From: an uncultured Desulfohalobiaceae bacterium
Lineage (GTDB): Bacteria > Desulfobacterota > Desulfovibrionia > Desulfovibrionales > Desulfothermaceae
Reading direction: 5' to 3'
Assembly: GCA_964621385.1 (NCBI GenBank)
Contig: CAZUMF010000001.1
Coordinates: forward strand, 1-54,466
DNA length: 54,466 nt
Positions 13,901 to 47,892 of this stretch are shown here, piece by piece. A program made the position numbers and the translations under genes. Each line of letters starts with the position of its first letter. Position 1 is the first letter of the stretch. The notes under the pieces were generated by a model. The model was not told the DNA's origin and did no database searches. It saw only the letters and a list, made by a program, of their open reading frames with translations.

Positions 13901-14236
13901 CTATTTCCGATTATGCTGTAAAAGTGAACCATAATGCCGCTTGAAACTGGTGGAAGAATATTTACTCATTTTCCAGTCCGGGACTTTGCACTTTTCACAA
14001 GGTTTCGTAAACCACTTATTTCTGAGCCACCGAGCACCACGGCTGTTTTTTGAATTGTTGACCATGAATTGCATGTTGCAATGAGTGGTGATCCAGGCCT
14101 GTTCTCCTTTCTTTTCGATAGTTCTGATTCCATGAAGGACACCTTTCCGAGAAGGCCAGAGCTTGATTTTGTCAATAAGGCTGAAGAGCTCGACCCTCTT
14201 TCTGTAATACCTCTTGGCTGGTTCACATTTAACCAT
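13901..14236 (-). CDS. pylSn: PylSn, stand-alone N-terminal (tRNA-Pyl-binding) domain of pyrrolysyl-tRNA synthetase
   Basis: LWPSRKGVLHGIRTIEKKGEQAWITTHCNMQFMVNNSKNSRGARWLRNKWFTKPCEKCKVPDW aligns with the N-terminal domain of archaeal PylS (LWMSRTGTIHKIKHH...[28 protein letters not shown]). The ATG at 14236 overlaps the pylD stop (ATGGTTAA). The track ORF start at 14413 is an out-of-context extension. Ends in TAG. Confidence 0.8.
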   Translation of the reverse strand: MVKCEPAKRYYRKRVELFSLIDKIKLWPSRKGVLHGIRTIEKKGEQAWITTHCNMQFMVNNSKNSRGARWLRNKWFTKPCEKCKVPDWKMSKYSSTSFKRHYGSLLQHNRK

Positions 14237-14881
14237 TGGCAATTCTGACCAACATGGTTGCGGTTCCGATCTGCAATGGATCGTGTAAAATCCTCGATCC
14301 TGCTTCAGTGATCCCCTTTTGATCCAGACCAAGGGGCATGCCCGGAGCAGCAATGAACATCTCCCGGGAAATAACTTTGCCAGGGATGACTCCCGCCGCA
14401 TTCGTGGCTTCAAAGACCAATCGGCTCTGCTCCAAAGCTTTTTCCAAATGCTGAGTTATTGGAACCTCCTTTGAACTGATACTGCTCAGTTGTTCAGAAG
14501 CAGTTCGACTCTTGGTCCGGTCCAGATCGTACAGGGAGACATCGGCAAAATTGGGCAATCACTTTTTTTCCTGATTGCTTCCCCCAGTCCGCCAACATCT
14601 GTCTCATGGGCTACAAAAGCCGGACAACCTAAATATGCAGCGATCGAACAGACGGCTTCTGAAAAACCTGGAAGCGAACCCTGACCACTGGTTATTGGTA
14701 TAACAGCTGTGTGTAGGGTGGTCGAAAAGAATGGTGCATGCCACCTGCAAGTACGCGATTTTTCTTTACCCGGCTCTGGATTATCAGACTGATTCCTGAG
14801 CTATTTTTCAAATTGACTAATCAATCTTTTTAATAATTCCAGAATAATACAAAGAAGGTTTTTAACACTTCTTCCTTTCAT
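14229..14881 (-). pseudogene. pylD: pylD (3-methylornithyl-N6-L-lysine dehydrogenase), apparently disrupted
   Basis: The C-terminal frame (14229..14558) reads FEATNAAGVIPGK...PLQIGTATML, like the PylD C-terminus. A different frame upstream (14561..14881) reads AVIPITSGQGSLPGFSEAV...DVGGLGEAIRKK, like the PylD N-terminal domain. The two frames need a 1-nt correction near 14545..14563. An in-frame TAG lies at 14801..14803 with no start codon after it. No GxGxxG loop is visible, and the total is ~217 codons. Confidence 0.65.
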
Positions 14882-15034: not shown

Positions 15035-16048
15035 TCAGTGTTTCTGAGCCACTTGCAACATGGCCAGAAGATTTTCCATAGGTGTTCCAGGGGAGACGGC
15101 GCATCCGGGTGCAAGGATCTGGATACCTTTGGAGATGGATTCCTCGGCCTCTTTAGTGACGACATCCGGTTCTTTGAGGAACAAGGTGTTGGTGACATCC
15201 ACCCCTCCCATCAAAACCATGTCCGGGCCACATTTTTCTCTGGCGAATTGGACATCAGCCTTTGGTTCAAGGCTCAAGGCGCTTGTTCCTGTCTGGCCCA
15301 TCTGCTCAACGATAACATCAACCTTCCCACAGATATGAAGAATAGTTGGAACAGAAATGGCTGCAAACTGCTTGCTTTCATATTCCAGCACAAGATCCCC
15401 AAAGGTTTTGGGAGCCATTAGGTCTGGAGAAGCGGTCATATCTTCGCAACTGATGATATCCGCACCGGCTTCAATCAGGGCTTTGGCCAGAGCTGTGCCC
15501 GCCTTTTCTGCCACATCGAGAAAGGGCCGCAGCTTCTCCGGCTTCTTATAGGAGGTTTTCAGCAGGGGAACGGTGTCTATGAGATGGCCGGCAATCGAGA
15601 AAGGACCGACGATTCCTGCTACAATCGGAACTTCGTCGCCGAGTTCCTTCTTCAGGATTTGAACCGCCTTCAGGAGTTCGGGAATTCGCCCTCTGGACAA
15701 AAAATCATCCGGAAAGCTCGGAGTGTCCTCCAATTTATAAGGTGGCGGATGATCGATGCCCGGTATCCCCTCTCCCTGTCTGGTCTTCCCCGGTTTGACC
15801 TTACATCCGAGCGCTTCAGCCTCAAATGTTTGACAAAAAGGGAGTCTCACCGCGTCAAATCCAAGCACGGTATGGTTGGCCAGGGCCAGTTTGGCCATGG
15901 GTTCGGCTTTTTCATGCCCTTCAGGCCAGAAGGCTTGCACCTTCTCCATCTGATCATAGGTGACCAAACTATTGGCTGCGAAGCAGGGCATACGGTCCGG
16001 TTTCTCATGCTGCATGACTGCCATTACCCGTTGTTTTGCATTCATCAT
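15035..16048 (-). CDS. URO-D family methyltransferase, MtaA/MtbA-like (MT2-type), copy 2
   Basis: 337-aa ORF that is URO-D/MtbA-like throughout (RLPFCQTFEAEALGC, ILHICGK). Confidence 0.8.
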   Translation of the reverse strand: MMNAKQRVMAVMQHEKPDRMPCFAANSLVTYDQMEKVQAFWPEGHEKAEPMAKLALANHTVLGFDAVRLPFCQTFEAEALGCKVKPGKTRQGEGIPGIDHPPPYKLEDTPSFPDDFLSRGRIPELLKAVQILKKELGDEVPIVAGIVGPFSIAGHLIDTVPLLKTSYKKPEKLRPFLDVAEKAGTALAKALIEAGADIISCEDMTASPDLMAPKTFGDLVLEYESKQFAAISVPTILHICGKVDVIVEQMGQTGTSALSLEPKADVQFAREKCGPDMVLMGGVDVTNTLFLKEPDVVTKEAEESISKGIQILAPGCAVSPGTPMENLLAMLQVAQKH

Positions 16049-16099: not shown

Positions 16100-17071
16100 T
16101 CAGGCATTGTCTCGGCTTTGTAAGACACACCGTTTCAGATTTCGGGTTGTCGCCTCGCTGTCAATTCCACAGCCAATGAAAACCAGACGCGTTTCATCCC
16201 TTCCTAACCAGTTTTCCCATTCTGTCTTGTTCCCGACATGATTCACAAAAACAGTTCGGTTTTCAAAGCGCACCGTTCCTTTCACTCGAAACAGCTCCCA
16301 GGGCAGATTGCGCATGAAATCATGGAAACACGTCTCATTGAGGATCTCCGGACCTTGGAAGGAAAAAGTCACAAAGAGCCGATCAGCCCTATCGAGATCT
16401 GTTTCAATGTCAGCGGTGCTTTTCAAGGCATTGATTGGCCGTGGCAGGTTCCAGGCACTGCCGGCAAACAGCGTCTGAAAGTCTACATTGCTGTATATCG
16501 TGGGAATAACCTCTGCATCAGGGACCAACTCATTGATCTCTTTCAAAAAAAAGAGAATCTGCTTTGGGTCAACAGTGTCGCTCTTGTTGAGGAGGATGAG
16601 GTCAGCCTCTTGGATTTGCTTGCTGAAAAGTGATCCAAAACAATCTCTGACCTCCCAGTTGTCGGCATCGACGATGGTGATGACCTTTTTGACGGCCATA
16701 TGGTCATGCATTGCAGCTTCATTCAAGGTTTCAACCACGGATACAGGGTTTCCCACACCGGAAAGTTCTATCAGGATCCTGGTTGGTCTCGACCTTTTCC
16801 AGAGGGCTTGCAGCGTCAGATTCAAATCGGCTTTCATTGTGCAGCAGACGCATCCGCTCGTGAGTTCAATCACATCTGAGCCACCTTGCTTGAGCATATC
16901 GCTGTCAAGGCCCACTTTTCCGAATTCGTTCACTATCACCGCGGTATTCCGCAGATCAGCGTCCCAAGCCAGTATCCTCTTGAGAAGAGTTGTCTTACCC
17001 GATCCCAGAAATCCGGCAATGACAAAGATCTCAGTTTGTTCTGTCAATAGAGATGGGCTCCCTTCCGTCAT
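16100..17071 (-). CDS. CobW/G3E-family GTPase metallochaperone (COG0523)
   Basis: 323-aa ORF with Walker A GFLGSGKTTLLKRIL, the metal-binding GCVCCTM motif and a CobW C-terminal-like domain. Confidence 0.85.
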   Translation of the reverse strand: MTEGSPSLLTEQTEIFVIAGFLGSGKTTLLKRILAWDADLRNTAVIVNEFGKVGLDSDMLKQGGSDVIELTSGCVCCTMKADLNLTLQALWKRSRPTRILIELSGVGNPVSVVETLNEAAMHDHMAVKKVITIVDADNWEVRDCFGSLFSKQIQEADLILLNKSDTVDPKQILFFLKEINELVPDAEVIPTIYSNVDFQTLFAGSAWNLPRPINALKSTADIETDLDRADRLFVTFSFQGPEILNETCFHDFMRNLPWELFRVKGTVRFENRTVFVNHVGNKTEWENWLGRDETRLVFIGCGIDSEATTRNLKRCVLQSRDNA

Positions 17072-23383: not shown

Positions 23384-23444
23384 GGGGGGACTGTTGAGTT
23401 CAACGCCATGTTTGACAACTGTAAATGAAAACAGGAGGAAGTGT

Positions 23445-24917
23445 ATGCGACGCAATCTGCACGCCGGGAAACGACCCAACAGGGGGCTGCGCTTTGAGGT
23501 TTTCAGTGCTGACGACCTTGAAGACATCCACTTCGCCACCCTGGAAATCCTTGAAAAGACAGGGTTGTATTTTGCGGATGACCAAGCTCTGGAGATCCTG
23601 CATGGAGCCGGGGCTGTGATCGACAAAACCAGGAAGGTGGCCAAAATTCCCCCTTACGTGGTGGAAGAGGCCATCAGGTCGGCCCCTTCAAAGCTGGTTC
23701 TGGCCGGGCGCAATCCTGAAAACGACTTTGTCATGGAGGGCGGCCGGGTCGGTTTCACCAATTTCGGGGAAGGGGTCTTCATCAATGATCCCTATAGCGG
23801 CGAACACCGCAAAACCACCAAGGCAGACGTGGCTTCTTCCGCCCTGCTGGCGGATTACCTGTCTGAAATCGATGTCTATGAACGGGCCGTGGGCGCTGAA
23901 GACACCCCGGCTGCATCCGTTCAGTTGCACAATGCCGAAGCCTGGATGCCCAATACCTCCAAACACGGGTTTATGGGGCCTGGCAACGGCTACCTGCTGC
24001 ACAAGATCGTGGACATGGCCGCGGCAGCTGCTGGGGGGAAGGACAAACTGCAAGAGCGGCCCCTGGTCAGCTTTATCACCTGCCCGGTCAGCCCCCTGAA
24101 ACTGGAAAAGGACACCTGCGAGATCATCATGGAGGCGGCCCGTTCCGGGATGGCGGTCAACATCCTGTCCATGGCCATGGCCGGTGGTTCCTCACCCGTG
24201 ACCCTGGCCGGGACCCTGGTGGACCACAACGCCGAAATCCTGGGCGGCATCGTCCTCAGCCAAGCCACCCGCAAAGGGGCCAAAGTCGTTTACGGCAGTT
24301 CGACCACAGCCATGGATCTGCGTTTTGCCGCGGCCATGGTCGGCTGCCCGGAATGCGGGGTCATCAACGCCGGCGTGGCCCAGCTGGCCCGCTACTATCT
24401 TTTGCCCAGCTGGGTCGCGGGCGGGTAGGGCGACAGCAAGGTTTGCGATGCCCAGTCCGGTCATGAAAAAACCATCACTGGCCTGTTACCGGCGTTGGCA
24501 GGTGCCAACCTGATTTACGGCCTGGGAATGATCGAAATGGGCATGACCATCGATTACGGCCAACTGGTCATGGACAATGAATTCGCCAGAATGATCAAAC
24601 ATGCGGTCCAGGGGGTCCCGGTGAGTGACGAGACCCTGGCCGTAGAGGTCATGCGGGAGATCGGCATTGGCAAGGACTACCTCAGCCATGAACACACGTA
24701 CCGCCACATGAGGTCCCAGTCCCAGTCCCAGTTGATCGATCGCAGAACCCGGGAATACTGGGAAACCAATGGGGGCATGGATATTTTCCAGCGCTCCATG
24801 GAGCAGGCCAGATACATCCTGGAACATCACCGACCCGAGCCCATTGCAGACAGCGCTTTGGCTGAAATACGCCTGATTGTCGAGGAGGCTGAAAAAGAAC
24901 TGGGGGTTGGGCAGTGA
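23445..24917 (+). CDS. mttB: trimethylamine:corrinoid methyltransferase MttB with an in-frame UAG (pyrrolysine) at 24426..24428
   Basis: Track ORFs 23394..24428 and 24495..24917 share a frame and are separated only by TAG. The joined product is 490 aa, MttB-like throughout. SD aggagga lies before ATG 23445. Terminates in TGA. Confidence 0.9.
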
Positions 24918-26614: not shown

Positions 26615-28051
26615 ATGCAGCCGAATCATTACGACATGCTCTCCCTTGAGGATGTGCAGCAAATCCATGATGCGTCCCTTCAGGTCCTGCAACAAACTGG
26701 ACTGGCAGTGGACCATACGGGCGCCAGACAGATTCTGGCTGATGCGGGCGCTGCGATCGAAGCCAGGGGCAATCGGGTCTTCATTCCTGCGGATCTGGTC
26801 GAATCAGCCCTAGCCAAGGCCCCGAAAAATTTCATTTGCGCCGGGCGAAGTGCGGAATACGACATGTTGGTCAGCAGCGACCAGTCCCATGCGCCTGTTG
26901 CCCGGAGCGTGGGAGGGCCTTTGAATTGTTTCGATTTTTCAAGTCATCAATCCCGCCAACTCACGATCCATGACTGTGCTGATCTGGCCCGCATGGTCGA
27001 TGCCCTGCCCAATCTGAATATCTGCGGCGGGCTATCTCCTCAGGATATTCCACAACAAACCTATGACATTGAGACCTTAAAGGTTTTATTGGAATATGGA
27101 AGAAAACACATCTGGGCCTTGACCACAGGATCCGCGAATCTCAAATATCAGCTGGAAATGATGGAAGTGGTCAGCGGCGGCAAGTTCGAACTGCAGCAAA
27201 GGCCTATCTGCAGCGGCATCGTCTGTCTCATCGAGCCCCTCCGCTTTCCCAGAGACGAAATCGAGAGGCTCCTGCTCTATGGTCGCTACAACCTCCCGGT
27301 GCGCGTTCCGCTCGTACCCATGGTCGGGGCCAATTCGCCCTACACCCTGGCTGGGACCATGGTCCAGACCAATGCCGAAGCCTTGGGAAGTCTGACTATC
27401 CTGCAAACCCTCTGTCCCGGCATTCCAACCTGGTACTACGTGATTATGGAGACCATGGAGATGCGCAAAGGATCCATGCAGTTGTTCAACCCTGAAGTCC
27501 TGCTGATTCTCAATGGCTTGTACCAGATGGCCCGCTATTATCAGCTTCCTGCGGTTGCTTCAGCCTTGATCGGCTCCAACTGCCAACCCCAGCAGATCAT
27601 GTTCGAACGCGGCACGAGCCTGTTCTTAACCGCATTGGCAGGGGTGAGCGAGATAGGCGGCGTGGGTGGTGTGGGCAATGGCATGATGATCAGTCCCCAG
27701 CTCCTGGCCATAGATAATGAAATGATCGCCTTTGTGAAACGTTTTCTCGAAGGATTTGAAATCAGTACTGACACCTTGGCTGTAGATGTCATCAATCGAG
27801 TTGGACACAGCGGGAAGTTTCTGGAAGACATACATACCCTGACCCATTTACGCAAAGAGATTCGTTTCAGGCCGAATCTGTTTGACTGGCGACCCTTTGT
27901 GGAACAGGGGACAGATGAAAAAACCATCTATCAACGCGCCCAGGAAACAATCGAGGCCATCCGTAAGGACCATGAGGTGGAGCCTCTGGAAGCGGAACAG
28001 CAAAGAGAACTCCACACCATCCTCTCAGCAGCTCAGCGAGATCTATTGTGA
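26615..28051 (+). CDS. MttB-superfamily methyltransferase without pyrrolysine (quaternary-amine-type paralogue)
   Basis: Uninterrupted 478-aa ORF that is MttB-like from the N-terminus (LSLEDVQQIHDASLQVLQQTGL) to the C-terminus, with no in-frame TAG. Confidence 0.85.
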   Translation: MQPNHYDMLSLEDVQQIHDASLQVLQQTGLAVDHTGARQILADAGAAIEARGNRVFIPADLVESALAKAPKNFICAGRSAEYDMLVSSDQSHAPVARSVGGPLNCFDFSSHQSRQLTIHDCADLARMVDALPNLNICGGLSPQDIPQQTYDIETLKVLLEYGRKHIWALTTGSANLKYQLEMMEVVSGGKFELQQRPICSGIVCLIEPLRFPRDEIERLLLYGRYNLPVRVPLVPMVGANSPYTLAGTMVQTNAEALGSLTILQTLCPGIPTWYYVIMETMEMRKGSMQLFNPEVLLILNGLYQMARYYQLPAVASALIGSNCQPQQIMFERGTSLFLTALAGVSEIGGVGGVGNGMMISPQLLAIDNEMIAFVKRFLEGFEISTDTLAVDVINRVGHSGKFLEDIHTLTHLRKEIRFRPNLFDWRPFVEQGTDEKTIYQRAQETIEAIRKDHEVEPLEAEQQRELHTILSAAQRDLL

Positions 28052-29170: not shown

Positions 29171-30571
29171 ATGGCCAAACACCTGACCAGACGGGGTGAC
29201 GGGGCATTCATTGAGATGAGCGCCGGCGAAATCATGAGAGACTTGGAGGAAGGGACTGCAGACGCTGCAGACAGGGGGAAAATCCCCCCTCTTTCTAAAG
29301 AAGAACTGGAAAAACTTCGAGATATCTTTTGCGATCCGGCCAAGTTTGTCAGCGTGGAACCGGGCAAAGAAGTGCCGCTGACTCATGATATCGGCACCTT
29401 GCGAGTGATGGGCGACCAGGGAAACAGTGGCGTTGGAATCCCCTTGAGCCGTGTTCAAGGCATCCAGGTGCACGAAAGGGCACTGTGCGCCGATACCATG
29501 GAGTTGGGGCATATCGACTACAGCTTCAAGCCTGTCAAACCGGTCATTGCCATGGAACAACAGGAGTTGGAAAACGCTTTGTTGTCTACGGTTCTGCCGC
29601 TCTTTTACGGAGCCATGCCCAATCTCGGGACGTACTATGAGCCCGACGGACCTTTCGGAAATCCTTCGGATTTGCTGCCAGCAGGCAAAATCAAGGAGGC
29701 TTACGCAGCTCAAGAAGGAGCAGTGGAACACGCAACACGAGACATGATCTTTGTCAGCGAAAAACTTGCAGAAGTCGGTTGCGATGGGATCAACATCGAC
29801 ACGACAGGGGCTGCCGGCGACACAGACTTTAAAGCCACCCTGCACGCTGTTGAACATCTCAAAAAGCATACGAAAATGTGCATTGAGGTTGGTATGGCGG
29901 GCGAATTTGTCCTGGGGATGCATGGAGGCCTCGAATATGACGGGAAAAAGCTCCATGGACTGTATTGCCATCAACAGGTAGAATTGGTTGAGAAATCAGG
30001 TGCGGATATTTTTGGGCCAGTGGTGAATACGAAACCGAGCAGATCCATGCCTTGGAATCTGGCCAGGGCGGTCACATTCATCAAAAAAACTGTGGAAACA
30101 TCCAATATCCCCATCCATGTGAATATGGGTATGGGGGTCGGCGGTTCACCTGTATTTGAGACCCCTCCCATTGACTCTGTGAGCAGGGCCTCCAAGGCGA
30201 TGGTGGAAATAGCCGGCGTAGACGGGTTGTAGGTAGGTGTGGGAGACCCCATGGGGATGTCTATAGCTCATGCAGTGGCAGCGGGAATGGGTGGAATCAG
30301 GACCGCCGGAGACCTGGTGGCCCGCATGCAGATGACCCGCAAGATGCGGATCAATGATGCAAAAGCCTACGTTGCCGAAAAGCTTCAGTTGTCCCCATTT
30401 GACCTGTCAGACGTCCACGTAATGAGAGAGGTCCGCGAGGAGCGAGACATCGGAATCATTACTTCAGTCCCAGGTTGTGCCAAGGGAATCGAGGCCAAGG
30501 CTCGCATCGCCGAGTTGCTCGATATCGAGATTGCAGGGGTAACGCGTCTCAAGGAAAAAATGAAACTGTAA
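29171..30571 (+). CDS. mtbB: dimethylamine:corrinoid methyltransferase MtbB (copy 2) with an in-frame UAG (pyrrolysine) at 30230..30232
   Basis: Track ORFs 29171..30232 and 30239..30571 share a frame and are separated only by TAG. The joined product is 466 aa. [45 protein letters not shown] matches my recollection of Methanosarcina MtbB. Terminates in TAA. Confidence 0.9.
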
Positions 30572-31584: not shown

Positions 31585-32568
31585 ATGGCTCGGCATTCAG
31601 CTTTTTCATCAGATATGAACACGATACACAGCAACGTGTCTCAGGAGGTTGTTGGCAGAAAAACTGAAATTCAATTGATACTGACTGCTCTGCACGCTGG
31701 AAAACACATCCTGCTTGAAGGGCCTCCAGGCACATCCAAATCTACTTTACTCCGGGCAATCGCCAAGGAAACAGGCATGCCTTTCTATATCGTAGAGGGG
31801 AATATCGATCTGACACCCGCCAAAGTTGTTGGTCATTTCAACCCATCAGGGGTCTTGAAAGACAGCTACCAAATGGAACACTTTGAACAGGGCCCCCTGA
31901 CCAAAGCCATGCTGGAAGGGGGAATCCTTTACATTGAAGAGTTCAACCGTATGCCGGCTGATGTTTCCAACGTGCTCATTTCACCCATGGAAGAAGGAGA
32001 AATTTCCATCCCCAGATATGGAAGCATCACAGCGGTTCCTTCATTCACCGTTATTGCAGCTCAAAACCCCTATGATGACGTTGGAACCGTCAGGGTCAGC
32101 AAAGCCTTCATGGACCGAGTTTGCTTAATCAAAATGGAATACCAGAACAAGGAGGAGGAACAGGAGATTGTTAAACGCCGAACCGGGGTGCTGCATCCTG
32201 ATATCACTGGTTTGGCCGTTGACATGGTCCGCAGGACAAGAGAGCATTCTGATCTTAAGGTCGGCGCATCAGTTCGGGGAGCCATTGACATGGTTGATCT
32301 CCTGACCGGCCTCCTGCAAATGGACAACCGGATCGAGCACAACCTTCTCCTGGCGGCCCGTATGGCTTTATCCAATAAGATTTGGCTGAGTGAAATGACC
32401 GAAAAAAATACAGACGAGATCGTTGAGGAAATCCTCGAAAGTCTCAAGCTTCAATTTACTGATTTGATCAAAAGCAATGAACCACTTCCCCCTGAATCAC
32501 TCCAAACGGACACCGATGATGACCTCCCTTCTGAAACAGGACAGGCAAAAAAAAAAGCAGCCATGTAG
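31585..32568 (+). CDS. MoxR-like AAA+ ATPase
   Basis: 327-aa ORF with Walker A LLEGPPGTSKST, Walker B-like ILYIEEFNR and MoxR/CbbQ/CobS-like architecture. Ends in TAG immediately after an A10 run. Confidence 0.8.
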   Translation: MARHSAFSSDMNTIHSNVSQEVVGRKTEIQLILTALHAGKHILLEGPPGTSKSTLLRAIAKETGMPFYIVEGNIDLTPAKVVGHFNPSGVLKDSYQMEHFEQGPLTKAMLEGGILYIEEFNRMPADVSNVLISPMEEGEISIPRYGSITAVPSFTVIAAQNPYDDVGTVRVSKAFMDRVCLIKMEYQNKEEEQEIVKRRTGVLHPDITGLAVDMVRRTREHSDLKVGASVRGAIDMVDLLTGLLQMDNRIEHNLLLAARMALSNKIWLSEMTEKNTDEIVEEILESLKLQFTDLIKSNEPLPPESLQTDTDDDLPSETGQAKKKAAM

Positions 32569-32621: not shown

Positions 32622-33425
32622 ATGGCCTCCTACCTGAATGCTCATCCTGAAAAGCTCCCGGATTTTTTTGAGCAGCAAGATGCTCTTGAGATGTTCGCAA
32701 ATGTGTATGGCATGCTGAAACAGAATGTCCGGAATCTTGCTGTCAAACTTGCCAGTCGGCTCATCATCAAAATTGCAAAGCAGATTGCTGATACTGGATA
32801 CCGTTCCGGCAAACTGAAACTGGTCAAGGGTTGTGCAGATGGAGCCGAATTGGAATTGGACAGGAGTCTGGAACGATATACTGAGGAACCGGAAATGGGT
32901 ATTGCTGACTGTTTAATGTCACTTACCAGGTATAAGGAACGTGAAGCTTTTGTCATGATATTTGACCGCAGCTATTCAATGAGAGGTATGAAAATCATCC
33001 TTGCCGCTATTACCGCAGCCTCAATTGCCAGACATTTCAGAAGAAATTATGCGATCCTTGCCTTCAGCAATGATGTCTCCGTTATCAAGGGGATCGATTC
33101 CACAGACGGACCCGAGACCATTCTTGAACGATTGTTTGCCTTGACGCTACAAGGAGATACGGACATTCACCAGGCTCTGGAAAAAGGCCTGGCCCATATC
33201 AGAAAATTTGAACGAAAACGTGGTCTTATCCTCACGGATGGGGCTTGGAACCGAGGAAAGAACCCTCTCTCAGTCGCTGGTCGCTTTGACAAGCTCAGTG
33301 TGATCGGTTTTCCACCGGCCAACATGGATAAAATCAGACCATTAGCCTTGAAAGGTCAGGGTGAACTCTCCTTTGTTGAAGATGAAACCACAATCGGCGG
33401 AGCCATCCTCAAGTCACTAAATTAA
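32622..33425 (+). CDS. von Willebrand factor A (VWA) domain protein, partner of the MoxR ATPase
   Basis: 267-aa ORF with a MIDAS-like DRSYSMRG motif. There is no SD before ATG 32622, and its frame stays open for 29 codons upstream, into the end of the ATPase gene. Confidence 0.7.
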   Translation: MASYLNAHPEKLPDFFEQQDALEMFANVYGMLKQNVRNLAVKLASRLIIKIAKQIADTGYRSGKLKLVKGCADGAELELDRSLERYTEEPEMGIADCLMSLTRYKEREAFVMIFDRSYSMRGMKIILAAITAASIARHFRRNYAILAFSNDVSVIKGIDSTDGPETILERLFALTLQGDTDIHQALEKGLAHIRKFERKRGLILTDGAWNRGKNPLSVAGRFDKLSVIGFPPANMDKIRPLALKGQGELSFVEDETTIGGAILKSLN

Positions 33426-33460: not shown

Positions 33461-34555
33461 ATGCACACAACCTCAACATATCTTTCTACCATTCTTGAAA
33501 AGGCAACAAAAGGTTCAAGAATTTCCCGTAAGGAGACGACGTATCTGTTGTCGCTGAGAGACCCCGAAGCCATCCAACGAGTGATATCGACCGCCCGTGA
33601 CGTTTGCCGGCAGAACTTTGGGAACAGTGTTTTTTTATACGGGTTCATCTATTTTTCAACATATTGCCGCAATCAATGTGCTTTTTGCTTTTATCGGCAA
33701 TCCAATACCCGCAGTCCGCGGTATCGGAAAAACCTGGACGAAGTGGTGCGTACAGCCTGTTATCTGGTTGATTCCGGGGTTCATCTGGTTGACCTGACCA
33801 TGGGTGAAGATCCCCTGCTTCATGAATCGGGTTTTCAAAGGCTTCTCCAGATTATAGCCCGGATAAAACAGAAAACAGGCATTCCCATCATGGTTTCCCC
33901 GGGTGTCGTGCCCGACGATCTGTTCAAGGAGTTTACGAAGCTTGAGGTTGACTGGTATGCATTGTATCAGGAGACGCACAACCCGACACTTTTTCAGAAG
34001 CTGCGGATCAATCAGGACTATGAGATCCGGAACAAGAAAAGAATCACAGCTCAGCAGGCCGGCATGCTCGTCGAAGACGGGATACTGATAGGAATCGGGG
34101 AGAGTGTTGCTGATCGAGCAGATTCAATCATGACCATGAAACGCAGCCTTTTGGATCAGGTTCGAGTCATGAGCTTTGTGCCCCAACCTGAAACTCCCTT
34201 GGCCAGAACACATACCTTACCCAGAATCAATGAAATCTTGTGTATAGCCGCGATGCGTCTGGCTATGCCGGATCAACTGATCCCAGCTTCCTTAGATGTA
34301 GACGGATTGGAAGGACTCAAGATGCGCTTGGAAGCAGGAGCGAACGTGGTCACTTCGATCATTCCTCCCAGCAATACGTTAGCCGGTGTCGCCCAAACTT
34401 CTCTGGATGTGGAAGAAGGCCGACGCTCGGTGCGTGAAGTGACGAAAATTCTGTCTCAGATGGATCTGGTCCCTGCCAGCAGAGAGGACTATGAATACTG
34501 GATCAAAGAGAGGAAAAAAACACAGCCCACGTCCTTGGAGGTGATCATGACCTAA
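33461..34555 (+). CDS. pylB: PylB, radical-SAM 3-methylornithine synthase
   Basis: 364-aa ORF. FGNSVFLYGFIYFSTYCRNQCAFCFY, VDLTMGEDP, ALYQETHNPTLFQKLR, VEDGILIGIGES, VRVMSFVPQPETPL and LIPASLDVDGLEGLKMRLEAGANVVTSIIPP track my recollection of Methanosarcina PylB block by block. Confidence 0.85.
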   Translation: MHTTSTYLSTILEKATKGSRISRKETTYLLSLRDPEAIQRVISTARDVCRQNFGNSVFLYGFIYFSTYCRNQCAFCFYRQSNTRSPRYRKNLDEVVRTACYLVDSGVHLVDLTMGEDPLLHESGFQRLLQIIARIKQKTGIPIMVSPGVVPDDLFKEFTKLEVDWYALYQETHNPTLFQKLRINQDYEIRNKKRITAQQAGMLVEDGILIGIGESVADRADSIMTMKRSLLDQVRVMSFVPQPETPLARTHTLPRINEILCIAAMRLAMPDQLIPASLDVDGLEGLKMRLEAGANVVTSIIPPSNTLAGVAQTSLDVEEGRRSVREVTKILSQMDLVPASREDYEYWIKERKKTQPTSLEVIMT

Positions 34556-34704: not shown

Positions 34705-35760
34705 TCAAGCCGAACGGCTTCTTTCATGATCGTATTCTCGAACCGCCTCGACCATGGCTCGAATGTTGACCGTGGGAGTCTCCGGTGGAACACCGCAGCT
34801 TGGCTCGATGAAATCAGCGCCATCTTCGATCGATTTTTTAACTTCTGCCTTGACTTCTTCCAGAGATCCCGAGACGAGTGTTCTTTTGGAACTGATGGTT
34901 CCCAATATTTTGACATCACCGACGATGGGCTTTATCCTGCGGATATTGACCGATTCGTCAACGCTGATGGCATCATAGCCGCAACTTACTAAAAACGGAA
35001 CCATCGACTCAACTTTTCCCCCGATATACAACATGCGCAGACCACCAAGGCTCTCTGATATTGTTATAAGAGCCGGTTTTATAATCTCATTCAAAGATTC
35101 TTTCGTTGTCAACACAGGTGTTAAGGCACCATCAGCGACCGTCACGATGTCTGAGCCGCTTCTATATTGCGCTTTTGCGAATTGAATGATAATAGAAGTT
35201 GCAAAGTCGATGAGTTTCTTGAAGGCTGCGGGATCCTTCAAGGTCATCATGGACAGGGACTCAAGACCGATCAATTCGCCAGCCAGGGTGAAAGGCCCGA
35301 CGACGTGGCTCGAAATTGGCAGATAGTCACCCACCTCATCTCTCGCCCTTCTAATCGCTTCGAGTACAACAGGAACACGGCCCATCTTCAAAAAGCCTTC
35401 CGGTTCTTTCATTTCCCCTGGGTCTTTATAAGGATGCTCGATGACTACCGGATAGAAATGCATCTTTTCCTGATAATGGACAGGGCATCCCAGGGCCTCG
35501 GCCTCGATCACGTTGTCAAAGGGAATCTTGACGTTCTCAATCCCTCCGATTTCGTAGGCCGCGATGGCTAGCTTGGCCATCTGCCGAGTATCCCTGAGAG
35601 CATCCGGCCAGGTTAACCCTGTCTCACGCTGCATCTCGACATTCACAGCCCCGCAGCAGCCAGTCAGGGAGGTAACCGGGGGAGTCTTTCTCTGTTTTCC
35701 CAACAACGCTTGAAAAACTCTCTGTTTTGGGCTCAATTCCATAATCTGTTCCGGGTGCAT
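34705..35760 (-). CDS. URO-D family methyltransferase, MtaA/MtbA-like (MT2-type), copy 3
   Basis: 351-aa ORF that is URO-D/MtbA-like (IPFDNVIEAEALGC, MLYIGGK). Confidence 0.8.
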   Translation of the reverse strand: MHPEQIMELSPKQRVFQALLGKQRKTPPVTSLTGCCGAVNVEMQRETGLTWPDALRDTRQMAKLAIAAYEIGGIENVKIPFDNVIEAEALGCPVHYQEKMHFYPVVIEHPYKDPGEMKEPEGFLKMGRVPVVLEAIRRARDEVGDYLPISSHVVGPFTLAGELIGLESLSMMTLKDPAAFKKLIDFATSIIIQFAKAQYRSGSDIVTVADGALTPVLTTKESLNEIIKPALITISESLGGLRMLYIGGKVESMVPFLVSCGYDAISVDESVNIRRIKPIVGDVKILGTISSKRTLVSGSLEEVKAEVKKSIEDGADFIEPSCGVPPETPTVNIRAMVEAVREYDHERSRSA

Positions 35761-36034: not shown

Positions 36035-36769
36035 TTAGATTGGGGAATGCCCATTTCCATTCTTCTTGGCAATCACCAGGGTCCAATAGTCCGGAGGCAT
36101 CATCTCCAGATCACGAACATTGGTGATAATTTGCTCCTTGTCTCGACCGCACCTGGATATGGCCATGCTGTATTCCAAAAATCCGGTTTCCTCCATGGCA
36201 TCATTGATATCTTTGGTGTTCCGATAGGCTTTGAACAACACCACATTCTCGACACACTGCGAAATATTTCGCAATCTCTCTCCACCAAGAGCCCCGGAGG
36301 TGATGACGAGGGACTCCTCGTCCTCAACCAGAACCGTATTCAAACGTGCCGCCACCGCCTGTGGAGTACAAATTCCCGGAATGGTTCTGATCCTGGCTAA
36401 TGGATCCAAGTCCTGCAACTGCTTCAATATATACCCATAGGTAGAATACGTCATTGGGTCCCCTAAGGTCAAGAAGGCGACATCCAGGCCTTGGTCCATT
36501 TCGCGCTTCAAGGCCCTGGCATTTTCCCGCCAGGCTGGGTACGTCACTCGCTTGTCTTTGGTCATGGGAAAATCAAGGAGTCTGACTTCAGTGTCTCCAT
36601 CAATGTATGGTTTGGCAATGGTCACCGCCAGGCTGTGCTGATTTTTACTCGAAGAAGCCGCGAAAATGACGTGAACGATCTCTAACGCCTTGACGGCCTT
36701 CAAGGTGATCAGCTCAGGATCACCCGGCCCCACCCCTATGCCGTAAAGGGTGCCCTTTTTCATGTTCAT
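36035..36769 (-). CDS. cbiL: precorrin-2 / cobalt-factor II C20-methyltransferase
   Basis: Tetrapyrrole methylase signature GTLYGIGVGPGDPELITLKA and FLTLGDPMTYSTY. The start is taken at the MNMKKG ATG after gaggtga. The track ORF extension to 36943 runs into the terminator and riboswitch. Confidence 0.85.
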   Translation of the reverse strand: MNMKKGTLYGIGVGPGDPELITLKAVKALEIVHVIFAASSSKNQHSLAVTIAKPYIDGDTEVRLLDFPMTKDKRVTYPAWRENARALKREMDQGLDVAFLTLGDPMTYSTYGYILKQLQDLDPLARIRTIPGICTPQAVAARLNTVLVEDEESLVITSGALGGERLRNISQCVENVVLFKAYRNTKDINDAMEETGFLEYSMAISRCGRDKEQIITNVRDLEMMPPDYWTLVIAKKNGNGHSPI

Positions 36770-36842
36770 AATCACCTCGTCCTGAATTAAACATTGACCG
36801 CAGTTACGACAATATTTGATCTTCCCTTTTCCTATCACCCCC

Positions 36843-36880
36843 AAAAAAAAACCGGATCGAATAGCGCTTATTCGATCCGG
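36843..36880 (-). terminator. intrinsic terminator (riboswitch expression platform)
   Basis: On the minus strand, CCGGATCGAATA-loop-TATTCGATCCGG (12-bp perfect stem) is followed by T9. It lies between the riboswitch and cbiL. Confidence 0.75.
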
Positions 36881-36944
36881 GGATTTCCCTTTTTTATCCA
36901 CCATGATCAAATGAGTTTCCAACCTCGGGAAACCATCATCCATG

Positions 36945-37140
36945 TTCAGGCAGGTCTTCTGACTTACGGATCGCCCTACTTGCCCGGTTGAAAAGATTCT
37001 TCAGAGAAATATCAACCAGGCTCACCGCCCCTTCCCATCGGATGTTTTCCAACAGTGGTTCTTTGCGGTTTTCGTCACCGATTACAGCCGCGGGCCGGTC
37101 CCTGAGTCGCACAGGGTTCCCTTTTTCGCTCCTATCGAGC
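36945..37140 (-). promoter_or_regulatory. cobalamin (B12) riboswitch
   Basis: The minus strand reads AAAAGGGAACCCTGTGCGACTCAGGGACCGGCCCGCGGCTGTAATCGG ... GAACCACTGTTGG ... GATGGGAAGG ... AGAAGACCTGCC. This parallels the E. coli btuB leader blocks (AGGGAA-UCCAGUGCGAAUCUGGA-GC..CGCAGCGGUAAGG, B12 box CACUG, GGGAAG, GAAGACCUGCC). Confidence 0.8.
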
Positions 37141-37187
37141 ACCTGAACACATCACATATCAATGAATCGCCTTATTCCTCCAAAGAT

Positions 37188-42971: not shown

Positions 42972-44450
42972 TCAAGCCGCTGCCTCCCGTTCTTTGGCCT
43001 CGGCCTCCTCGACAATCGACCTCAATTTCGACAGGACTTCAGCCGGCAGTTCAGTGACCTTGTGTTTTTCCAGAATCTCTCGGGCCCTCTCACCGGCCAC
43101 CTCGGCCAGATCCTTGCCTCCGCGTTTCTGCCACGCACCCCGCATCCTGCGGTCAATCAACTTCACTTTTGACTGCTCCGTTCCCATATACTGTCTGGTG
43201 TGTTTCTGGGCCAGAAAGTCCTTACCCGAGCCTACCTTCTTGATCAGTTCAACCGCCAAGGTGTCATCTGACACATTGACTCCTTGAACCACTCGCTTGA
43301 CCATGGCGGCAATCTCATTATCCATGACGAGCTGGGCAAAACTGAAGGTCACCCCCAGTTCCAGCATGCCCATCCCATAGATCAGATTCGCCCCGGCCAA
43401 GGCAGGCAACAGGGAAGTGATGGTTTTTTCGTGTCCGGCCTGAGCATCGGACACTTTGCTGTCTGCCTAATTCCCCGCCACATAACTTGGCAACCGGTAG
43501 TAACGGGCCAGTCCCGCCACACCCGCACTGAGCATGCCCAGCTCCGGAGCGCCGACTGGAGCCGTGGCATAGGTCAGGTCAAAGGTTGTTGTGGAACTGC
43601 CGTAAATCAGCGGGGCCCCTTTGGCCGTCAGCTGACTCAAGACGACACCAGCCAAGACCTCAGCATTGTGCGTGACCAGAGTACCGGCCACAGAAACCGG
43701 TGAGGAACCCCCTGACATGGCCATGGACAATACATTGCAAGGCATCCCGGCCCGGGCGCATTCGATGATGATCTCCGCATTGGCAGCGTGGAGCTCCAAG
43801 GGACTTGTCGGACAGATAAGGGCCGAAACGAGCGGTCTTTCCCTGAGCTTATCAGGGCCTCCCACAATCTCGGCCGCCATTTCAAAGAACTTTTTCGCCC
43901 CTTCACCGCCCGAGAGATCGATGTGCTGGCAATGCTTGCAGGTGTTGGTCAAGAAAGCCTCGGCCTCATTGAGGTCCGTGGCCAAATCCTTATCCCTGGC
44001 CACGACAGCACTGGAATACACATCAACATGTTCCAGGGCATCACAGGCCAGGGCTGTCCAGCCCACGTCCTTTTTGTTGGATTCTCGAAGTTCACCGTTA
44101 TACGGGTCCACCATCATTACTCCGGCCCCGAAGCTGGTAAAGCCCACCCGGCCCCCTTGCAGGGTCACGTCGTATTCAGGGGTTCTGCCTGCCATCAAAA
44201 TAGTGCTGGGGGCTGAAGAAATGGCATCCTCCACCAGGTAAGACGGAATCTTCACATGTTTGTTCTCCCAGTCAACAATCGCTCCACCACCATCGAATAT
44301 TTTCAGGGCTTCTTCACTATAAACCCCGACCCCGTAATTCTGAAGAACATCCAGGGTCGCCAGATGGATTTCGTTGAGCTGGTCGTCCGTGAACATGCTC
44401 AGACCCCAACCTTCCTGAGTGCTTATGCCAGGTTGAAGTCCTCGAATCAT
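42972..44450 (-). CDS. mttB: trimethylamine:corrinoid methyltransferase MttB (copy 2) with an in-frame UAG (pyrrolysine) at 43467..43469
   Basis: Track ORFs 43467..44528 and 42972..43454 share a frame and are separated only by TAG. The start is taken at MIRGLQ (44450), preceded by aaaggaggtg-N5. The joined product is 492 aa. Terminates in TGA. Confidence 0.9.
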
Positions 44451-44585
44451 TTTCACACCTCCTTTTCTTTTGAGATTGACTGTTTTGTCTTGTAATGTTT
44501 GTTCCTGATCTGTCATCACCTCCTTCATGAGTCAGGTTGTGCCAGCATACAGCCAAGCAAGAGACTCAGGAATCGAATGTTCCTT

Positions 44586-45230
44586 TTACTTGATGAGTTC
44601 TTTGGCCTTGGGCACCGCATCATTTGCATCTTCTGCATAGCAGTCCGCGCCGATCTTGTCGGCCCAGTCCTGAGTTGCTGCCGCACCGCCGATCATGGTT
44701 TTGACTTTGTCTCGTATCCCGGCCTTTTTCAGTTCTTCCTCAACCTGTTTCTGACCAATCATGGTCGTGGTCATCAGAGCCGAGGAGCCGACAATGTCGG
44801 CGTTTAACTCCTTGGCCTTCTCCACAAAGACATTGATCGGCACATCCCTGCCGAGATCCGTCACTTCGAAACCATAGACCCGAAGGATGGTGCACAGAAT
44901 CCGCTTGCCGATATCGTGTATGTCTCCTTCGACCGTTCCGATCACGGCTCTGGCAAGGGGTTCGACAACCTCGTCCTTGGGTATGTGGGGCTCTAAGATC
45001 TCGATGGCCTTGGTCATGGCCTCTGCTGCCACCAGAACCCCGGGAAGTGGAATTTCTTCGTTGGCAAAACCTTCCCCGACTTCCGTCATCCCTGCAGAAA
45101 AGCCTTCATTGATGATTTCAAGTGGGCTTATGCCTTCTGCAAGGACCTGGTTGGCCACTGCTGCAGCCATGTCTTCGTCACCATCCAACAAAGCCTGTTT
45201 GCTTTTTTTCAACAAATCTTCTTTGCTCAC
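44586..45230 (-). CDS. mttC: corrinoid protein (MttC-like by position)
   Basis: 214-aa ORF with a cap domain and a B12-binding domain carrying GDIHDIGKRI. It lies directly upstream of mttB copy 2. The symbol is assigned from adjacency only. Confidence 0.85.
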   Translation of the reverse strand: MSKEDLLKKSKQALLDGDEDMAAAVANQVLAEGISPLEIINEGFSAGMTEVGEGFANEEIPLPGVLVAAEAMTKAIEILEPHIPKDEVVEPLARAVIGTVEGDIHDIGKRILCTILRVYGFEVTDLGRDVPINVFVEKAKELNADIVGSSALMTTTMIGQKQVEEELKKAGIRDKVKTMIGGAAATQDWADKIGADCYAEDANDAVPKAKELIK

Positions 45231-45342: not shown

Positions 45343-45783
45343 TCAAAAAACTGTTTTTTCCGGTTCTACGAAACATTTCCGGATGACGTCCGGAACTTCC
45401 CATAATAACGAGGGCCAGGTATGCCGGGTTGGCTGCATGAGATGAAGAGCCTGCGTTAGAGGTTCAATCCGATCAAGAACTCGTTTAGCAAAGAAATATC
45501 CTTTTTTTCCAAAAATGACCGTCTCTGTGCTCTGCCCTGTGAGAGAGGGATCAAGAATTTTCAAGGCATTATTCATGGCTGTAACGGCCATCAGGACCGT
45601 TGGAAGAGCCGTTTTTTCCTGGGCAAACAAGTCAATGATCTCCAACATACCCGGGACAAGCCCGCGGTCGATGAACTGTACTGGATCAAGTCCATGTTCG
45701 ATGGTCATTCTGGCTGCGACAACCGCCTTATCGGTATCTCCTTCATAAACAGCCGCTGCTGCCTTCTCCACAAGTCTTTCCAT
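45343..45783 (-). CDS. corrinoid-protein cap (B12-binding_2) domain only; truncated or degenerate corrinoid protein
   Basis: 146-aa ORF. The first ~90 aa resemble the helical cap of the neighbouring corrinoid proteins (GLDPVQFIDRGLVPGMLEIIDLF...LPTVLMAVTAM). No DxHxxG or Rossmann part follows in any frame. Confidence 0.5.
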   Translation of the reverse strand: MERLVEKAAAAVYEGDTDKAVVAARMTIEHGLDPVQFIDRGLVPGMLEIIDLFAQEKTALPTVLMAVTAMNNALKILDPSLTGQSTETVIFGKKGYFFAKRVLDRIEPLTQALHLMQPTRHTWPSLLWEVPDVIRKCFVEPEKTVF

Positions 45784-45842
45784 ACCTGATTGTTATCCCG
45801 TCTGAGCCTTTGGATATCTGGTCCAAAGGCCCAGACAAAATA

Positions 45843-47240
45843 TTAGAGTTTGAATTCAAAGCCGATGCCTTCCATGGTCTTAATAGCCTGATCCAAAACA
45901 TCGAAGTGTTCTTTCGTGGGCATCAATGACTTCACGTCATAACACTCCTGAAAGGTCTTGCCCTTGGGGGCCTCTCTGAACTTGGTCTCGTAGAGGCTGA
46001 CCAGTTTGTCCAGCATGGAGTTTACTTTATCTGTTTCAACCCCGGCCACTGCTCTGGCGGCATAAGCCATAAAACGGGCTTCAATGGCTGTCGTCTTGTC
46101 GCGGGCAACACCCTTGGCTGAGGCACAGCCGCTCATTATTTCCATGCCGCTGGCCGTATCCGTGATGGCCTGGGCTGCTGCCTCCAAAAGGCACATCTCA
46201 GTGCAGGGTCCGGCAGAAGTGTAGTACTGATTTCCTAAAAGCAGATGTGTATGCTTATCAACGGCCCGGCAGGCATGTCCGGCGACCATCAACGGCTCCC
46301 TGGCCGTTGTATTGCCCCAGCGCACATGAATAGGACCGTCCAGATGCCAGTCGGCGCCGACCATGATGAATGCGGCGAGGTGGGTGGCCACGTTCACGAT
46401 TGAGGTCTCCTCGACCCCACCGGCCCAGCCACCGATAATCGGCATCTGTTCGCTCATGATGATGTTGCCTGCCAGTTTGTAATGGGCCGTAAAAGCGAGC
46501 GCGTTGATGTCAATCTTGAGTTCATTCAACTGGCTCACCTCGTGGCTGTCACACGGTCTCATGCCCTCTGGGAAATCGGCGGCGATCACTCCTGCGGCAG
46601 TCAGAGAAGTTTCGCTCCCCTACATGGCCATGCCGGGCCGACCGGCCCGGGTCATTGCAGCCCGAATCTGGGAGACCTCGCCTTTGACAGCGGCTATTTC
46701 CCATGGAGATCCGGGTTTGGGCTCTCTCCCGTTGATGGTGGCCAAGACCCCGTTAACGATGGTATCCACCAGGGGCTCCCGGGCAAAAGCTTCATGCATG
46801 GCGATGAAGCAGTCCTCGGAAACAGGCGCTCCGGTGGGTCCACCTTGGCACAGGGGTGGTATTGGGCTGTCGAACCTTCTGGGCGCCAACCGCCGTGCAT
46901 CACGACCCTCACCAAGGGTCAATTCTTTGGGGGCGCCGGCAACGGCCAGCAGGACCTCCTCTTCGGTGTACTTGATGATCCTGCCTGTATCCATGCAGTA
47001 GACACCCATCTCTACAAGCATCTCCAGACCGGCCTGAAACAGGCGATCAAGCATGTCCTCATCAGTGGGGATGATCTTGGTCCGGTCGAATTGCAGTTTG
47101 TACTTCTTTTTCAACTTGTTGGCGGTTTGGAACGTCACCTTTTGATCCCATTCCTTTTCGTCCATCCGTGGTCCGGTGCGTGCTCGATCATAGGTCTCGA
47201 ACACGCCCACTTTGTCTCTGAAGCGAGTAAAGCCCATCAT
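45843..47240 (-). CDS. mtmB: monomethylamine:corrinoid methyltransferase MtmB with an in-frame UAG (pyrrolysine) at 46620..46622
   Basis: Track ORFs 46620..47240 and 45843..46589 share a frame and are separated only by TAG. RAGRPGMAM-O-GSETSLTAAG and DSHEVSQLNELKID, HLDGPIHVRWG, GPCTEMCLLEAAAQAITDTASG and GKTFQECYDVK match my recollection of Methanosarcina MtmB. The joined product is 465 aa. Terminates in TAA. Confidence 0.9.
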
Positions 47241-47250
47241 TCACCTCCTT

Positions 47251-47892
47251 TTATTTACTGATCAATTCCGTAATGAGTTCCACTCCGGCGGCGGCGTTTT
47301 CTCCCCAGCCATCCCCGCCGATCATGTCCACCCAGTCCTGAGTTGTCGGGGCCCCGCCAAAGACGCACTTGAATCTGTCCCGCAGACCGCGTTCCTTCAG
47401 GGCATCGATGATGTCCCTCTGTCCCGGCATGGTCGTCGTCATCAGGGCCGATCCTGTGATACAATCCACATCGTTGTCCACGGCCGCATCGATCACTTGA
47501 TCCGCAGGCACATCCCGCCCCAGATCGATGGCATCGTATCCATTGGCCTGCAGGAGAATGGTGAAAATACCCTTGCCGATATCGTGGATATCACCCTCCA
47601 CCGTATGGACCACGACCTTGCCTTTGGCTGAATATCCACCCTTGATTTGCGCCGCCAGGACATCCACCGCCGCTGTGAAGGCTTCGGCCGACAGGACAAT
47701 CTGCGGCACATAGATCTCGGCCCGGTCGAATCGGTCGCTGATTTCCTTCATGGCCGCGGAAAGTCCGTTTTCTATGCACTCAAGGGGATCAAGTCCTTGG
47801 GCCAGTGCCTCGTTCGCCGCCGCAACGGCTGCATCTGTGTCCATATCCAAGACACAACTCTTCAAACGCTCGAACATTTCTTGTGAACTCAT
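47251..47892 (-). CDS. mtmC: corrinoid protein (MtmC-like by position)
   Basis: 213-aa ORF with a cap domain and a B12-binding domain carrying GDIHDIGKGI. It lies 10 nt upstream of mtmB. The symbol is assigned from adjacency only. Confidence 0.85.
   Translation of the reverse strand: MSSQEMFERLKSCVLDMDTDAAVAAANEALAQGLDPLECIENGLSAAMKEISDRFDRAEIYVPQIVLSAEAFTAAVDVLAAQIKGGYSAKGKVVVHTVEGDIHDIGKGIFTILLQANGYDAIDLGRDVPADQVIDAAVDNDVDCITGSALMTTTMPGQRDIIDALKERGLRDRFKCVFGGAPTTQDWVDMIGGDGWGENAAAGVELITELISK

Follow-up and report, generated by a model that had tools for sequence, protein, structure and literature searches.

Does the interrupted reading frame at 45843..47240 of the window, the whole 54,466-nucleotide stretch of contig CAZUMF010000001.1 analysed here, encode two short proteins, or a single monomethylamine methyltransferase (MtmB) in which an internal UAG codon is read as pyrrolysine (Pyl)? 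MtmB1 of Methanosarcina barkeri is the founding pyrrolysine protein, and an earlier note on this DNA, made from the letters alone, had proposed that the frame is an mtmB gene of the same kind. We consider it very probable that the locus is a functional bacterial mtmB that gives one protein of about 50 kDa, with its UAG decoded as pyrrolysine and with no dedicated downstream RNA element. The features on which this answer turns are the following.

45843..47240, minus strand: mtmB, monomethylamine:corrinoid methyltransferase gene; 465 codons with one UAG; Pfam MtmB and PDB matches
46620..46622, minus strand: the UAG, predicted pyrrolysine codon; number 207, or 206 if counted from the second ATG; in the Pyl202 column
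47243..47251, minus strand: AAGGAGGTG, Shine-Dalgarno sequence of mtmB, after the mtmC stop and ahead of the ATGATG; read from the sequence

On translation, the frame runs from the ATG at 47240 to a TAA at 45845..45843, and its sole internal stop is the TAG at 46622..46620. The two open reading frames (ORFs) that the earlier note had joined, 46620..47240 (206 aa) and 45843..46589 (248 aa), are indeed two halves of this one frame: the TAG is the only stop between them, it is codon 207 when counted from the first ATG, and the joined gene has 465 codons and ends with a TAA terminator. The start reads ATGATG, with the second ATG at 47237. The strong Shine-Dalgarno sequence AAGGAGGTG starts one base past the TAA that closes the upstream gene and lies 3 nt from the first ATG and 6 nt from the second. 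Because the latter spacing is more usual, translation may in fact begin at the second ATG; the Pyl codon would then be number 206 and the protein 464 aa long. The automatic gene caller picked this second ATG as well, giving an N-terminal piece of 205 aa.

To what protein does the joined frame belong? For comparison with families and structures we placed an X at the TAG of the translated query. The Pfam family MtmB (PF05369) matched with 692.9 bits against a curated cutoff of 25; the match covers profile positions 2–449 of 450, spans both halves and is far beyond chance. A scan of the protein against NCBIfam returned no family. Among known structures, the M. barkeri MtmB1 chains (1L2Q, 1NTH and 1TV2-4) aligned with E 5e-168, query residues 7–463 against chain residues 3–458, with amino-acid identity of ~55% over the full length. 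The pairwise alignment, which the earlier note had named as one possible refutation of its reading, puts the TAG column at Pyl202 of MtmB1: an ungapped block aligns query position 207 with chain position 202, which is pyrrolysine deposited as K, in the context AGRPGMAM-X-GSETSL for the query and AGRPGMGV-K-GPETSL for MtmB1. The longer context that the note had quoted, RAGRPGMAM and GSETSLTAAG on either side of the stop, is present and aligns without gaps to AGRPGMGV and GPETSLSAQG around K/Pyl202. All five sequence blocks that it had listed as shared with the methanogen protein are also found, gap-free against MtmB1, with DSHEVSQLNELKID and GKTFQECYDVK identical. In the same alignment the query conserves the glutamates at MtmB1 positions 205, 229 and 259, which reportedly line the active site (Hao et al. 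2002). By these alignments the gene reads as a genuine Pyl-encoding mtmB, a textbook case.

If the TAG is a sense codon, how widely is it kept? Our homologue scan took one genome per GTDB species and gave 79 loci with relatives. In the Pyl column, TAG is found in all 80 close homologue copies at these 79 loci, which come from both bacteria and archaea; they span Desulfobacterales, Dehalococcoidales, Firmicutes and methanogens. The sole exception is a 32%-identical paralogue at locus L005, which has ATG instead. We also estimated selection from the four nearest bacterial homologues, over 180 codons before the TAG and 250 after it. Downstream codons differ far less at nonsynonymous sites (pN 0.070–0.147) than at synonymous ones (pS 0.71–0.75), comparable to the upstream codons, and dN/dS is 0.03–0.06 where computable. 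Purifying selection on the codons after the TAG is no weaker than on those before it, and the sequence after the TAG thus appears to be translated and selected as part of the same protein as the sequence before it.

A pseudogene or a pair of genes would require the TAG to be a true stop that leaves a 206-aa product, with the 248-aa ORF either untranslated or started from the GTG at 46589. Automatic callers do give exactly such pieces, of 205 aa and 228 aa, and public collections hold the mtmB of the window as two proteins of these lengths; TAG is, moreover, a real terminator in 7 of the 46 window genes. However, a true stop does not fit with a TAG column kept in 80 of 80 homologues from two domains of life, nor with a downstream dN/dS of ~0.03 that equals the upstream value, and it takes both halves to cover the MtmB domain. 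The GTG at 46589, the first possible restart, has no Shine-Dalgarno sequence ahead of it, and the residues GSETSLTAAG, which lie between the TAG and this GTG, are conserved among homologues. We regard a true stop here as highly improbable.

Could the TAG instead be an artefact of sequencing or assembly that hides a sense codon, AAG or CAG for example? Over 10.7 kb, an independent assembly of run SRR12088347 agrees with the window at 99.99% identity, and its mtmB is split at the same point. The window and this Logan contig probably come from the same sample, which leaves an error some room, but TAG stands at that position in every homologue, and in four further methyltransferase genes of the window a TAG likewise occupies the known Pyl position of the respective enzyme. 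An error is in our view extremely improbable. Because the TAG column and GSETSLTAAG are conserved, the downstream half is under selection and the GTG lacks a Shine-Dalgarno sequence, we hold pseudogene, split gene and sequencing error all to be very unlikely.

With the UAG most plausibly read through, the next question is whether the messenger RNA directs this reading. In Methanosarcina mtmB1, a downstream structure, the pyrrolysine insertion sequence (PYLIS), has been proposed to direct or enhance read-through, and the corresponding region here is the following.

46523..46619, minus strand: 3' flank of the mtmB UAG; coding only, with no supported PYLIS structure

A PYLIS-like stem-loop in this flank, a possibility that the earlier note had raised, was not found by folding against shuffles, by Rfam or by pairing among bacterial homologues. 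What speaks for such an element is an Rfam PYLIS_1 (RF01982) match that sits exactly at 46622..46523, with 53.2 bits and E 1.4e-10. This score is below the gathering score of 70, so that the match is missing from the Rfam scan at gathering threshold, and 6 of the 15 model pairs are non-standard in the mtmB flank. Nor does the flank fold better than chance: the 123 nt from the codon before the TAG have a minimum free energy of -31.7 kcal/mol against a shuffle mean of -33.35 kcal/mol (z +0.46), and 135 of 200 shuffles fold as well.

To see how the helices fare in relatives, we imposed the Rfam PYLIS_1 structure on the 100-nt flanks of 15 bacterial and 59 distinct archaeal homologues. The archaeal flanks, which served as positive control, have 87.9% of cells paired (94.7% in helix 1) and 21 double-change cells, and only 3 of 500 shuffles did equally well. 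In contrast, the bacterial flanks have 62.7% of cells paired and no compensatory changes, with 481 of 500 shuffles equal. The PYLIS_1 helices are absent from this mtmB, and the absence is credible because the same method detects the element in methanogens, where it is known; the sub-threshold match is conserved coding sequence. We therefore give little credence to read-through by a PYLIS-type structure at this gene, the more so as bacterial Pyl genes have been found to share no common structure (PMC1976440). The missing element does not weaken decoding of the UAG as pyrrolysine, since Pyl insertion is described as needing no particular sequence motif, with UAG staying ambiguous (PMC12626013), and since bacterial genes gave no common structure (PMC1976440). 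Separately, the four other TAG-containing genes of the window, two mttB and two mtbB, have Rfam PYLIS_2 or PYLIS_3 matches above the gathering score (77–86 bits) that start at the TAG; structure and coding conservation are both possible explanations for these.

Does the gene stand where an mtmB would be expected to stand? It is the second gene of a pair, and its partner encodes the cognate corrinoid protein.

47251..47892, minus strand: mtmC, cognate corrinoid protein, 213 aa; B12-binding and B12-binding_2 domains, DxHxxG motif (EGDIHDIGK)
45794..45842, minus strand: hairpin 3' of the mtmB TAA, perfect over 21 bp, without a U tract; found by folding against shuffles
44586..45230: mttC, in a co-directional cluster with mtmB and mttB-2
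42972..44528, minus strand: mttB-2, trimethylamine methyltransferase gene with an in-frame TAG; Pfam MTTB on both sides of the TAG; PYLIS_3 80.8 bits

MtmC matches the NCBIfam family TIGR02370 (pyl_corrinoid) with 234.9 bits, above the cutoff of 215.3. Its gene is separated from the mtmB start by 8 nt, and the mtmC–mtmB pairing is kept in 12 of 15 bacterial loci; at loci L003, L008, L009 and L011, pylB lies directly downstream of mtmB. In the window the pair is part of a 17 kb series of minus-strand genes that all point the same way and lie between two LIV-type ABC transporters, and mtmB is followed in order by a corrinoid-protein remnant, mttC and the TAG-containing mttB. The hairpin that directly follows the mtmB stop has a folding energy of -31.3 kcal/mol (z -6.38), a stability reached by none of 200 shuffles, and may be an element for mRNA 3'-end formation, stability or processing. 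We rejected the idea of a repeated, REP-like (repetitive extragenic palindromic) element, as the hairpin is present in a single copy in the window. Around the operon, promoters and terminators were predicted no more often than in shuffled sequence.

Between mtmB and mttC lies a further ORF (45343..45783, minus strand, 146 aa) that contains only the N-terminal B12-binding_2 cap domain of a methyltransferase corrinoid protein; both the DxHxxG motif and the Rossmann domain that binds B12 are missing. The ORF is either what remains of a gene or encodes a protein made of the cap domain alone. We also considered a complete corrinoid gene broken by a frameshift, and rejected it: the other downstream frames hold no B12-binding domain, and the same 146-aa ORF is also called in the SRR12088347 assembly, which counts against a frameshift.

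Could the host make and charge pyrrolysine? Part of the machinery is encoded in the window itself.

33461..34555, plus strand: pylB, methylornithine synthase (first step of Pyl biosynthesis); TIGR03910 457.1 bits, cutoff 348.2
13901..14413, minus strand: pylSn, small subunit of the split bacterial pyrrolysyl-tRNA synthetase; TIGR03912 127.9 bits, cutoff 51.15

The true start of pylSn is probably internal, with the domain at ORF residues 72–160. The arrangement of the pyl genes is scattered and unusual: pylB stands alone, with no pylC or pylD beside it, and is preceded by genes for a MoxR-type AAA+ ATPase (31585..32568) and a VWA-domain protein (32622..33425), while pylSn is 20 kb from pylB, adjoins ramA and is itself terminated by TAG.

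Beyond mtmB and its neighbours, the window is a methylamine island of ~50 kb in which four more genes are interrupted by TAG. The remaining features, in order of position, are these.

346..897: cobA
2097..3143, 15035..16048 and 34705..35760, minus strand: three MtaA/CmuA-family genes; URO-D fold; below equivalog cutoffs
3187..6627, minus strand: fusion of a RACo/AcsV-like reactivase and a GltD-like oxidoreductase, 1146 aa
7386..8339, minus strand: MtrH/MtgA-like protein; Pfam MtrH 156 bits; PRK00979 276.9 and MtgA 153.9 bits, both below cutoff
12041..13720, minus strand: ramA, methylamine corrinoid reductive activase; TIGR04270 732 bits, cutoff 500
16100..17071: cobW-like GTPase gene
23394..24917, plus strand: mttB-1, trimethylamine methyltransferase gene with an in-frame TAG; read-through ORF; Rfam PYLIS_3 77.2 bits
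25195..26589, plus strand: mtbB-1, dimethylamine methyltransferase gene with an in-frame TAG; read-through ORF; Rfam PYLIS_2 86.4 bits
26615..28051, plus strand: MttB-superfamily protein without Pyl, 478 aa; no in-frame stop; TIGR02369 360 bits, cutoff 525
29171..30571, plus strand: mtbB-2, dimethylamine methyltransferase gene with an in-frame TAG; PYLIS_2 85.5 bits; Dimeth_Pyl on both called pieces
36035..36943, minus strand: cbiL, precorrin-2/cobalt-factor II C20-methyltransferase gene; riboswitch immediately upstream
36932..37161, minus strand: cobalamin riboswitch, 98.6 bits

The island also holds further corrinoid proteins and a two-component system. In the 1146-aa fusion, a 2Fe-2S ferredoxin domain is combined with RACo/AcsV-type domains, and a GltD-like NAD(P)H module is inserted between them; this architecture suggests corrinoid reactivation driven by pyridine nucleotides, beside a separate RamA. 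The MttB homologue at 26615..28051 sits between the two mtbB genes and is a candidate quaternary-amine methyltransferase of the glycine betaine type. We infer from its family matches that the MtrH/MtgA-like protein is a candidate methyl-corrinoid:tetrahydrofolate methyltransferase and hence a downstream partner, and the three MtaA/CmuA-family proteins are closest to methylcobamide:coenzyme M methyltransferases.

Taken by homology, these parts suggest how the system would work. Most likely, the UAG at 46622..46620 would be decoded through competition between Pyl-tRNA(CUA) and release factor 1 (RF1), and read-through would then depend on the supply of Pyl-tRNA. Within the TIM-barrel active site, pyrrolysine would bind and activate monomethylamine, and the methyl group would be handed to the Co(I) corrinoid carried by MtmC, the product of the gene just upstream, with RamA re-reducing corrinoid that had been inactivated by oxidation. 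From there the methyl group would move to a second methyltransferase (MT2), for which the MtrH/MtgA-like protein and the MtaA/CmuA-like proteins are the candidates, and presumably on to tetrahydrofolate, to be oxidised or assimilated. Two mtbB genes, two mttB genes and mtmB would together support the stepwise demethylation of tri-, di- and monomethylamine, and so the complete demethylation of trimethylamine.

The UAG might also be read through in an enzyme whose substrate is something other than monomethylamine. The MtmB superfamily does include members with other substrates (PMC13044021, PMC9768040), for example tetramethylammonium and choline, but those divergent enzymes are without Pyl and only ~25–30% identical to Pyl-containing MtmB (PMC13044021, PMC9768040), whereas the protein studied here keeps Pyl and full-length identity of ~55% to M. 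barkeri MtmB1. The neighbouring mtbB and mttB products would, moreover, yield monomethylamine as product. A different substrate therefore seems very improbable to us, and monomethylamine is the predicted one.

Several observations pull the other way and have to be set against decoding of this UAG as pyrrolysine in a methylamine-using host. No pylT was found in the 54 kb window by ARAGORN, by Rfam at E<=0.1 or by a manual search for an anticodon arm with the loop YUCUAAR and a stem of 6 bp, and pylSc, pylC and pylD were not found by Pfam and NCBIfam searches of essentially all window ORFs of at least 120 aa. Because these four genes were not found within the window, the capacity of the host to make and charge Pyl is supported only in part; a Pyl system, if complete, must have pylT, pylSc, pylC and pylD elsewhere in the genome. 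TAG ends 7 of the 46 window genes (15%), including pylSn, next to TGA in 22 and TAA in 17, and since TAG still ends genes here, read-through would compete with termination. Each TAG-terminated gene has a TAA or TGA 1–22 codons further on, a backup that would make accidental Pyl read-through less costly. The presence of two different MT2 families, MtrH/MtgA-like and MtaA/CmuA-like, makes both tetrahydrofolate and a thiol candidates for the methyl acceptor. Finally, the host is probably a member of the Desulfobacterales, an assignment that follows the nearest relatives of three proteins, MtmB, MtmC and the neighbouring binding protein.

What would the locus mean if the system is active? Methylamines, usually regarded as "non-competitive" substrates of methanogens, would then be fully oxidised by sulfate reducers, and monomethylamine use, which was not reported in PMC1976440 or PMC8318568, would be added to the deltaproteobacterial Pyl repertoire. 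A complete set of methyltransferases for mono-, di- and trimethylamine in a probable sulfate reducer supports the view that methanogens are not the only users of methylamines in sediments. We put at about even the chance that the full picture holds: a sulfate reducer of Desulfobacterales type, with the whole Pyl-dependent set for tri-, di- and monomethylamine on one island (two mttB, two mtbB, mtmB, RamA, the RACo–oxidoreductase fusion, corrinoid proteins and MT2 enzymes), whose five UAGs are read without PYLIS while ~15% of its stops are UAG.

The contrast between methanogen mtmB genes, which keep the PYLIS helices, and bacterial ones, from which they are absent, is a comparative data point on one and the same recoded codon, and it indicates that the PYLIS structure is a lineage-specific enhancer rather than a requirement. 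For annotation, the consequence is immediate. The best 120 database matches to the C-terminal half of mtmB are all fragments of 204–255 aa, and bacterial Pyl-MtmB is for this reason to be seen as systematically under-called, split at the UAG.

How does the locus compare with its relatives? The closest MtmB proteins belong to metagenome-assembled genomes (MAGs) of uncultured Desulfobacteraceae/Desulfobacterales (87–92% identity) and to Candidatus Desulfobacula maris (81%). Next come Dehalococcoidales MAGs (64–74%), Desulfosporosinus, Desulfitobacteriaceae, Desulfotomaculaceae and Clostridium (61–66%) and Methanosarcinales (53–57%); MtmC and the neighbouring binding protein have the same nearest relatives as MtmB. 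The loci of the closest group, Ca. Desulfobacula maris included (L001, L005, L015 and L002), share with the window the TAG column and the mtmC–mtmB order at 81–92% identity, and L001 and L005 have the same periplasmic binding-protein gene nearby. With differences of 8–19%, however, the window protein is not from the same species representative, and its gene is followed by the corrinoid-protein remnant and mttC–mttB, whereas in the relatives the binding-protein gene comes directly after mtmB.

Compared with M. barkeri MtmB1, the window protein is collinear over its full length, has its UAG at Pyl202, keeps the sequence blocks and the glutamates 205, 229 and 259, and is likewise encoded after mtmC. 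Unlike in M. barkeri, though, the host is a bacterium and not a methanogen, the PYLIS_1 stem-loops of methanogen mtmB are not formed, coenzyme M cannot be assumed to be the downstream methyl acceptor, and the synthetase is of the split PylSn/PylSc type, with pylSn in the window. The MtmB homologues without Pyl, MtqB of Methanococcoides methylutens (PMC13044021) and the protein of strain DCMF (PMC9768040), share the family PF05369 and a paired corrinoid protein with the window gene but have no UAG or Pyl and are only ~25–32% identical. A comparable non-Pyl paralogue occurs in the Desulfobacterales MAG of L005 (521–1792), upstream of mtmC–mtmB(TAG), with 32% identity and Met at the Pyl column. 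MtqB acts on tetramethylammonium and choline (PMC13044021), and no paralogue of this kind is present in the window.

Pyl systems have been described from Deltaproteobacteria, in the delta1 symbiont of Olavius algarvensis (PMC1976440) and in marine Desulfobacterales (PMC8318568). Like the window, these have split pylSn/pylSc and multiple UAG-containing mttB and mtbB genes, still use UAG as a stop and share no PYLIS structure. Unlike the window, in which all three methyltransferase classes are present, the delta1 symbiont has no Pyl-containing MtmB (0 in Table 3 of PMC1976440), and PMC8318568 nowhere mentions mtmB or mtbB, with monomethylamine only in its reference list. Bacterial Pyl-MtmBs are already present in a published phylogeny (PMC13044021) and, by our homologue scan, in many public genomes. 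The gene belongs to the founding class of Pyl proteins, already known, and nothing here will surprise a specialist. It goes slightly beyond the cited papers in placing a Pyl-MtmB in the Desulfobacterales lineage, in bringing all three methyltransferase classes together on one island and in the contrast between archaea and bacteria in the conservation of PYLIS.

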